Assembly (NCBI RefSeq): GCF_023055435.1
Contig: NW_025963802.1
Span: 35,030,001 to 35,094,000 of the forward strand
DNA length: 64,000 bases
Source of the DNA: Haliotis rufescens
Lineage: Eukaryota
Direction: 5' to 3'
The first letter of the stretch is position 1, and every line of letters begins with the position of its first letter. A program made the position numbers and the translations under genes. Below the pieces are notes generated by a model that saw only the letters and a program-made list of their open reading frames with translations, did no database searches and was not told the DNA's origin. This document shows, piece after piece, positions 1-12,994 of the stretch.

Positions 1-792
1 TTAGATCTACTAAATATAATATAAATATTAAACGTTAACGCTAGAGAATAATCAGTGAGTGACTCTTTAAAGGGGGCCTCCACTTGGATCAAAAGGCATT
101 TCTTACACGTTTGGTTCAAGTCATTCCTGATTAGTCCTACTATAAAGACGGCATCATGATTAGATCTACTAAATATAATATAAATATTAAACGTTAACGC
201 TAGAGAATAATCAGTGAGTGACTCTTTAAAGGAGGCCTCCACTTGGATCAAAAGGCATTTCTTACACGTTTGGTTCAAGTCATTCCTGATTAGTCCTACT
301 ATAAAGACGGCATCATGATTAGATCTACTAAATATAATATAAATATTAAACGTTAACGCTAGAGAATAATCAGTGAGTGACTCTTTAAAGGGGGCCTCCA
401 CTTGGATCAAAAGGCATTTCTTACACGTTTGGTTCAAGTCATTCCTGATTAGTCCTACTAGAAGACGGCATCATGATTAGATCTACTAAATATAATATAA
501 ATATTAAACGTTAACGCTAGAGAATAATCAGTGAGTGACTCTTTAAAGGGGGCCTCCACTTGGATCAAAAGGCATTTCTTACACGTTTGGTTCAAGTCAT
601 TCCTGATTAGTCCTACTAGAAGACGGCATCATGATTAGATCTACTAAATATAATATAAATATTAAACGTTAACGCTAGAGAATAATCAGTGAGTGACTCT
701 TTAAAGGAGGCCTCCACTTGGATCAAAAGGCATTTCTTACACGTTTGGTTCAAGTCATTCCTGATTAGTCCTACTAGAAGACGGCATTATGA
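1..792. repeat. 158/159-bp tandem repeat, about 5 copies, truncated at the window edge
   Basis: Unit start ttagatctac at 1, 160, 319, 477, 635. Confidence 0.95.
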
Positions 793-5092: not shown

Positions 5093-5185
5093 CAAGAACC
5101 CCCATGGCCAACCCTCCAAGCGCTATGCCCATGGCGTTCCCCCTCTCCTTGTCATCCGGGTATCTGTCTGCCAGCATCCCCATGC
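5093..5185 (-). CDS. Vmat: VMAT coding exon 5, 93 nt
   Basis: [31 protein letters not shown]; acceptor gtttcag|, donor TG|GTAAGT. Confidence 0.95.
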
Positions 5186-10456: not shown

Positions 10457-10780
10457 TAGCGTCCGCCCGGAGAGCGGAATGTCCGGGGTTCGATCCCCGG
10501 TCGCGTCATACCAAAAGACGTTAAAAGATGGTACTTGTTGTTACCCTGTCTAGCGCTCTGCATTAAGGGGCTAAAACAATGACTGGTGGGCTCGGAGTCA
10601 GTATACTGTGTTTGAGTGGGGTATTCGTGTTAAACTGCGGCATGGTATCTCATTGGGCTAGCACTATAAGTCGGCATCAGTCCGGACTAGTACAAGCAGC
10701 CACACCCACGTGCATGCACATAAGTGCAATAATCTTGGACGCGACGTTAAACCCTATTTCACCTCATCTCATTTTTACCT
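10457..10780 (+). mobile_element. tRNA-derived SINE family C (Meta-domain-like)
   Basis: GGTTCGATCCC B box followed by gtcataccaaaagacgttaaaagatggtac; copies at 22575, 49706, 60107, 60385, 63160. Confidence 0.85.
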
Positions 10781-10945: not shown

Positions 10946-11029
10946 CGGCGACACTGGAACACGAGGACCCTATTCCCTGTACAGTTCGAGCTATAAACAA
11001 CACGGTGTAACTCTGTCCAAAGGCAAAAA
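10946..11029 (-). CDS. Vmat: VMAT coding exon 4, 84 nt
   Basis: (I)[27 protein letters not shown](G); acceptor tttcatttcag|, donor CG|GTGAGT. Confidence 0.94.
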
Positions 11030-11662: not shown

Positions 11663-11870
11663 TGATGTCACATGGCAATGAGTGAATGAAGGATACAATC
11701 TGCTATGAACTGAGACCATGCCTGAAGAAGTGTAATGTTATTTACACAATTATGAAACATTAAATTGTAACTCCCGTTTAATATTAAAAAAAAAAACATT
11801 ACGCCACTATGAAACTCTTGAAGTTAAAACATATAGGTTTCAATAGTTGCAAGTGTCATGACGACGTGAA

Positions 11871-12805
11871 CTCCAATATTTACAAATAGTTGATACTATC
11901 ATGGTAATGTGTACTAGAATACTTACTAATAGTTGATACTATCATTGCAATGTATACTCGAATACTTACTAATAGTTGATACTGACATGGCAATGTATAC
12001 TCGAATACTTACTAACAGTTGATACTATCATGGCAATGTATACTCGAATACTTACTAATAGTTGATACTGACATGGCAATGTATACTCGAATACTTACTA
12101 ATAGTTGATACTATCATGGCAATGTATACTCGAATACTTACTAATAGTTGATACTGACATGGCAATGTATACTCGAATACTTACTAATAGTTGATACTGA
12201 CATGGCAGTGTGTATTCGAATACTTACTAATAGTTCATACTGACATGGCAGTGTGTACTCGAATACTTACTAATAGTTCATACTGATATGGCAATGTATA
12301 CTCGAATACTTACTAATAGTTGATACTATCATTGCAATGTATACTCGAATACTTACTAATAGTTGATACTGACATGGCAATGTGTACTCGAATTCTTACT
12401 AATAGTTGATACTGACATGGCAATGTATACTCGAATTCTTACTAATAGTTCATACTGACATGGCAATGTATACTCGAATACTTTCTAATAGTTGATACTG
12501 ACATGGCAATGTGTACTCGAATACTTACTAATAGTTGATACTGACATGGCAGTGTGTACTCGAATACTTACTAATAGTTGATATTGACATGGCAATGTAT
12601 ACTCGAATACTTACTAATAGTTGATACTATCATTGCAATGTATACTCGAATACTTACTAATAGTTGATACTGACATGGCAATGTATACTCGAATACTTAC
12701 TAATAGTTGATACTAACATGGCAATGTATACTCGAATACTTACTAATAGTTGATACTGACATGGCAATGTGTACTCGAATACTTACTAATAGTTGACACT
12801 GTCAT
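11871..12805. repeat. 43-bp minisatellite, about 21.7 units, overlapping the VMAT exon 3 donor
   Basis: Unit gaatacttactaatagttgatactgacatggcaatgtatactc; exact 43-bp spacing from 11921 to 12781. Confidence 0.97.
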
Positions 12806-12845
12806 GACAAAGAATCCAACAAACATTGGAATACTGTAACCAACC
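12787..12845 (-). CDS. Vmat: VMAT coding exon 3, 59 nt (not in the ORF track)
   Basis: Hand translation (R)VGYSIPMFVGFFVMTVSTI; acceptor ctatctccgcag|, donor TTA|GTAAGT; phases 2 and 1 match both neighbours. Confidence 0.93.
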
Positions 12846-12994
12846 CTGCGGAGATAGAAAAGCATGATGAGACTGTACACATATACAAAGTGATGTCTTG
12901 ATATAATTTCAATTTAAACTTTCTCTTTCAATAATATAAGTTTGTAAAGTTAATAGAGCAGTTCATATACATACAATTATTTTGTAAAATATAT

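Follow-up and report, generated by a model that had tools for sequence, protein, structure and literature searches.

Our analysis makes it highly probable that the junction between a coding exon of a vesicular monoamine transporter (VMAT) gene and its following intron has been amplified into that intron as a tandem array, that the most upstream donor (hereafter site 1) is the one used, and that the 20 further copies are likely silent passengers tolerated by selection. This reading is directly supported by the junction origin of the repeated unit, its exact period, the diverged edges of the array, splicing at site 1 in transcript contigs and the presence of the array in a relative. Coordinates without a prefix refer to the window, the whole stretch of 64,000 nucleotides of Haliotis rufescens DNA that was analysed; the VMAT exons, the array and its splice sites lie on the minus strand.

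Nine coding exons between 1670 and 15335 belong to a VMAT (SLC18A1/2-like) gene that runs past the window start into L011. Joined at site 1, these exons give 385/385 residues of the annotated protein P0123 with no stop, in line with the statement of the initial annotation that only the first site yields protein. The nearest proteins are Haliotis vesicular amine transporters, and exon 4 is closer to VMAT2 (E 1.2e-7) than to VAChT (E 0.03); judged by its sequence, the gene is a vesicular monoamine transporter (SLC18A1/2-like) with an intact frame. Central to the analysis are coding exon 3 (12787..12845, 59 nt, about residues 185-204), whose final 23 nt served as template for the unit, coding exon 4 (10946..11029, 84 nt, about residues 205-232), which carries the partner acceptor at 11029, and coding exon 5 (5093..5185, 93 nt). 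No second close VMAT copy was found in the genome. We also observed a distant SLC18-like gene with introns (G000:C24:31241735-31249508) and an intronless SLC18-like gene of 46% identity (G000:C13:488999-490153), the latter presumably VAChT-like. Of seven arrays found in the VMAT introns examined, one sits at a donor and another close to an acceptor. This second one, with a unit of 158 bp, belongs to one of the later VMAT introns (window 1-792 and L011:9105-10000); it stops 19 nt short of the acceptor AG, and its last unit extends into the branch-point region.

The array at the donor of exon 3 was called by TRF at 11870..12810 as a 43-bp minisatellite of ~22 units (period 43, 21.9 copies, 92% matches, 0 indels) and takes up 52% of the 1757-nt intron. 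Each unit consists of ~23 nt copying the end of exon 3, followed by 20 nt from the start of the intron; the initial annotation had correctly recognized the junction origin and had cut the unit less well, as ~23 intronic plus 20 exon-like nt. The exon end and the unit consensus are identical at 18/20 positions on recomputation, as annotated, or at 20/23 if the comparison is extended. The first array unit spans the real exon-intron boundary, as confirmed by transcript contigs and by P0123. With a unit of between 10 and 160 bp repeated head to tail, the array is a junction-spanning minisatellite of the F7 or ‘mirage’ type. The authentic donor (12779..12789), the sole one seen in use, reads TTA in the exon followed by GTAAGTAT in the intron, with the last exon base at 12787 and the G of its GT at 12786. 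Donor-like sites recur across the array at exactly 43-nt spacing, with 20 pseudo-donors at 12786-43n (11921..12743), the last of which has the G of its GT at 11926. Both TRF and our site counts agree with the ~20 tandem decoy donors first described from the exon end and 5′ splice site, and the recount by motif was identical to the earlier one: 17 GTAAGT, 2 GTAAGA (12442 and 12399) and 1 GAAAGT (12485) in which the GT is lost. The intron thus reiterates a splice signal, 17/20 copies being the same as the authentic TTA and GTAAGTAT from −3 to +8. The spacing given for the donors in the initial annotation holds, whereas its coordinates (12781, 11921 and 11878) mark the +6 base and are 5 nt low, the G lying at 12786, 11926 and 11883.

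The array is homogenised in its interior and diverged at its edges. Its 21 units fall into 14 unit types, and agreement with the consensus drops from 38 to 34 and then 25 of 43 positions over units 20, 21 and 22. The diverged edge units (11841..11906) include a degenerate donor, GTAAAT, at 11883 and an exon-like remnant without GT, ending at 11841, which retains exon-type letters and matches the real exon end (18/23) better than the unit consensus (16/23). The residues coded by the exon 3 end are common to all 4 Haliotis VMAT proteins seen. They include, at 12799-12807 and within the exon part copied by the repeat, a Phe/Met position that is occupied by an abalone-specific Thr in the 4 Haliotis proteins (among 95 homologues, 89 have Phe, 5 Met and 1 Thr). 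No sign of conversion of the exon by the array was seen at this position: each of the 4 Haliotis proteins has the Thr, the units encode Ser or Ile there, and the exon-type letters persist in the oldest remnant.

The array most likely arose by a local duplication across the exon 3/donor junction, followed by slippage or unequal exchange. Expansion would have proceeded only towards the intron because the exon and its donor stay intact that way.

Assembled transcripts show site 1 as the main product. Contigs of all five RNA-type runs compared, from five studies and organisms A, B and C, join 12787 to the acceptor at 11029; beyond 12787 their sequence equals the initial 30 letters of the exon that begins at this acceptor. 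In each run, a single contig passes over exon 3 without differences and is also joined to the previous exon. Depth was 0 in the two array units included in the comparison, and no decoy or exon-skip junction was present in the RNA-type contigs of 5/5 runs. At the contig level, the check proposed in the initial annotation, to map junctions to the 11029 acceptor, returned exits at 12787 only, and its suggestion that exon definition robustly selects site 1 fits both these runs and P0123. The comparison covered 5 of 14 RNA-type and 3 of 5 DNA-type runs, leaving aside three small-RNA raw-read runs and X20-X24; reads were compared with 12695-12990, which contains the exon and two units, and junctions spanning the full intron were deduced from loose ends. 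Regular splicing at the most upstream site thus dominates at the contig level, at depths of 5-23 in runs whose RNA status is a guess from a 0.06 share. Contigs drop rare variants and hide forms degraded by nonsense-mediated decay (NMD), and the RNA comes from organisms A-C, while the DNA evidence for the array comes from organism D. Given the low depth, the guessed RNA type, the masking by NMD and the dropped variants, the decoys are best called likely silent.

Use of any of the 20 decoys would lead to a premature stop. The first adds 43 nt and throws the reading out of frame until a TGA, its earliest stop, at +32 of exon 5, the 93-nt exon named in the initial annotation; this exon (5185-5093) lies one beyond the 84-nt exon at 11029. 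Reading further into the intron meets the in-frame TAG that had also been reported, which we located at intron +42..+44 (12743..12745) and which ends the frame for every decoy beyond the first or for a retained intron. As none of the decoys avoids a premature stop, rare slips to them would be removed by NMD. Site 1, for its part, may be chosen by its position as the earliest donor downstream of the acceptor of its exon, which lies 59 nt upstream, through an upstream-first choice of the F7 type or through exon definition, a rule carried over here from F7 to a mollusc. A fold of 12400-12900, computed with no control and given no weight, gave a mean unpaired value of 0.52 for the first donor, 0.05-0.40 for the next six and 0.53 for unit 7, near the fold end.

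The array also occurs in a related organism. In 3/3 DNA-type runs of organism D, whose flank is ~4% diverged (five letters, shared by the runs, and one insertion differ from the window, while the exon is identical), array contigs exceed the flank in depth, and the unique flank on either side is present. Many short contigs cover the units, and the unique far flank appears as a loose end. Neutrality permits retention of the array at this divergence but does not demand it. The same runs hint at length variation. Their array-to-flank peak depth ratios are 76, 35 and 21, although contig depth is not copy number; seven like contigs are 1.5-2.7 times deeper in X15 than in X18 after scaling, an excess to be read against the twofold change in depth that bubble removal in contig assembly can produce; and X16 carries its own unit variants.

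This hint bears on the alternative that survives best, improbable as we consider it, namely that the array is a length-polymorphic modifier in which added units would raise decoy use and decay, or would cause the 84-nt exon to be skipped in frame, as happens to the next exon in human ABCA7. It draws on the premature stops produced by all decoys, on the differences in depth and unit variants between organism D runs, and on the ABCA7 precedent (PMC5954066), together with the length of exon 4, which is divisible by three so that its skipping would be in frame. Against it, none of the 5/5 RNA-type runs contains a decoy or skip junction, the depth differences are not copy numbers and bubble removal can alter depth twofold, and one-unit retention in ABCA7 amounts to ~2%, independent of array length (PMC5954066). 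If length has an effect here, in-frame skipping of the 84-nt exon would be its most plausible form. We regard as slightly more doubtful still the wider proposal that a length-variable allele series tunes monoamine packaging in abalone through decoys and decay or exon skipping, and that dozens to hundreds of such arrays constitute a natural genome-wide experiment in donor choice.

The junction array is not peculiar to VMAT, since unrelated genes share its layout and array density alone predicts hundreds of cases. Counting arrays with a period of 15-200, 5 or more copies and 80% or more matches, we found 13 in 20 stretches of 10 kb on the same contig, or 65 per Mb, with a mean period of 44. At this density, chance would place an array at ~0.3% of donors, or ~570 cases genome-wide if the genome is assumed to contain 200,000 donors. 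A search for triplets of consensus donors with a spacing of 30-60 nt gave 2976 matches versus 1668 for the reversed control; because these matches are clumped by array, no enrichment was deduced from the excess. The first 100 of the 2976 matches correspond to 16 arrays, all of which were examined, with 17 pieces scanned against Pfam. At least 3/16 of these other donor-bearing arrays start at an exon end, so that the genome scan suggested in the initial annotation for terminal units lying on splice sites did yield further examples; the remaining 13/16 are unconfirmed, three of them looking exon-like. Two of the confirmed exons pass Pfam cut-offs. Seven copies of a 53-bp unit follow the end and donor of a calpain catalytic-domain exon (L074:3415-3801, plus strand, Pfam E 1e-11), and eight copies of a 60-bp unit follow those of a prolyl oligopeptidase exon (L083:1476-1965, minus strand, Pfam E 1e-6). 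The prolyl oligopeptidase unit, 50 nt of which are exonic, has a length divisible by three and could keep the frame if a decoy were used. A 76-nt exon resembling N-acetylneuraminate lyase (PDB E 0.006) is followed by ~55 copies of a 46-bp unit (L078 from ~3035, plus strand). Two paralogous exons on the minus strand, 54 kb apart on C1, are each followed by a 47-bp donor array (L072 and L073). They look sacsin-like by a motif, and Pfam and PDB searches of both exons returned no match. The first donor of L073, GTAGGT, is weaker than its downstream copies. The L080 array has an acceptor-like site and no database match, and for L079 the search for the 5′ end did not locate it.

These unrelated genes, together with the variation among the units, weigh on a second alternative, that the array is a selected landing pad for U1 snRNP which helps to define an exon that is short and whose donor is weak on the exonic side (TTA), or which blocks premature cleavage within the intron. 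GTAAGTAT is indeed kept in 17/20 copies and matches the U1 5′ end fully on the intronic side. The matches of the authentic donor to the U1 complement, 8/11 in total, are all intronic, and this score falls in the middle of the range covered by the nine VMAT donors, the correctly placed ones of which reach 6-9 of 11. The donor motif is conserved no better than the remainder of the unit: the donor 9-mer holds 2/13 variant alleles on 21% of the unit, and 23/43 windows of the same size are as invariant by variant sites, or 13/43 by differing cells. As the donor part varies like the rest, three copies have decayed and the same layout occurs at unrelated genes, we consider a selected landing pad very unlikely. 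The initial annotation had offered a copy-number-dependent rheostat or a U1 landing array as functions for the repeat; neither is borne out by our data, which contain no decoy junction and no preferential conservation of donors at a layout that recurs elsewhere, with the qualification that contigs are blind to rare or NMD-sensitive forms.

A third alternative would derive the unit from a dispersed repeat family that was fitted to the exon end later. It finds some support in a 44-bp array of 50 copies (L013:3053-5256, on G000:C587) whose unit is VMAT-like, 70% alike over 340 nt, with a shuffle-fitted p of ~8e-7 per pair that becomes ~0.07 when all arrays are allowed for. Yet this is the single other similar array found in the genome, the VMAT unit is nearer to the coding exon end (20/23) than to the L013 array, and with ~87,000 arrays in the genome a chance likeness is possible. 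The L013 array lacks a donor GT in register, no VMAT exon was found beside it, and its flank gave no significant alignment with the region of the VMAT exon (29/500 shuffles). It is interrupted by a dispersed element that also occurs at window 10500-10760, and an open frame resembling a membrane protein lies at L013:949-1239 on the plus strand. On sequence grounds, the L013 array may descend from the VMAT array or resemble it by chance. Because the VMAT unit is closer to the exon end, and because this exon end codes for conserved residues, any flow would more likely have run from VMAT outwards, and an origin in a dispersed family seems most improbable. The possibility that the array is an assembly artefact, raised in the initial annotation as a refutation, is contradicted by the 14 unit types among 21 units and by the deep array contigs with both unique flanks in all three organism D runs, and can for practical purposes be dismissed.

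We thus return to an amplified junction with likely silent copies. As a single locus, the VMAT array matters little, because its layout and its upstream-first outcome are known, and it would gain weight if array length altered VMAT isoforms or expression level. The many arrays of this genome, with their varied period, exon share and donor strength, provide a panel for studying upstream-first donor choice outside mammals.

Our literature search on abalone VMAT and Haliotis intron minisatellites, in which the Haliotis papers were judged by title and the start of the abstract, returned no description of this locus; several comparable systems are known. Intron 7 of human F7 contains a 37-bp VNTR whose first unit lies over the exon 7 boundary, and only the most upstream donor is used, while other pseudo-donors work once that one is mutated (Borensztajn et al. 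2006, PMC1557585). The VMAT array shares with F7 the boundary-spanning first unit, the identical pseudo-donors that follow it and the use of the upstream-most site. It differs in belonging to a mollusc, in having ~22 units that each include 23 exonic nt, instead of 5-9 units with 4 exonic nt, and in being known from sequence and contigs, whereas pseudo-site function and polymorphism were demonstrated for F7. The same source cites IFI6 (6-16, 25 pseudo-sites), CBS intron 13, LMNB2 and PDGF intron 4 as further cases, and early duplication experiments that conflicted on which copy wins (PMC1557585). These four cases have the layout of the VMAT array and comparable copy numbers (10-25). Splicing at two pseudo-sites occurs in IFI6 and CBS as well, in contrast with the VMAT array, where none was seen in use. 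In human ABCA7, intron 18 holds a 25-bp VNTR, and skipping of the next exon is described as rising with its length (De Roeck et al. 2018, PMC5954066); splicing-associated tandem repeats of this type (spl-TR) are described more generally by the correlation of array length with splicing or expression (PMC10078293). As at VMAT, a donor GT is present in every ABCA7 unit, retention of one unit shifts the frame and loss of the following exon can preserve it, although the ABCA7 unit starts at the GT and its length-dependent skipping and expression were measured, whereas any such effect at VMAT is hypothetical. The ‘mirage’ minisatellites of amphioxus, in Adh3 and the globins BflGb6 and BflGb9, are described as leaving splicing undisturbed (Ebner et al. 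2010, PMC3087553). Like them, the VMAT array is a tandemly duplicated exon-intron boundary, is found in a marine invertebrate with a repeat-rich genome, leaves splicing normal and has edge units outside homogenisation; they belong to a different phylum, and the length and somatic instability demonstrated there are only hinted at for VMAT. Both the layout and its upstream-first outcome have therefore already been published, and the VMAT array carries this kind of minisatellite to a mollusc.
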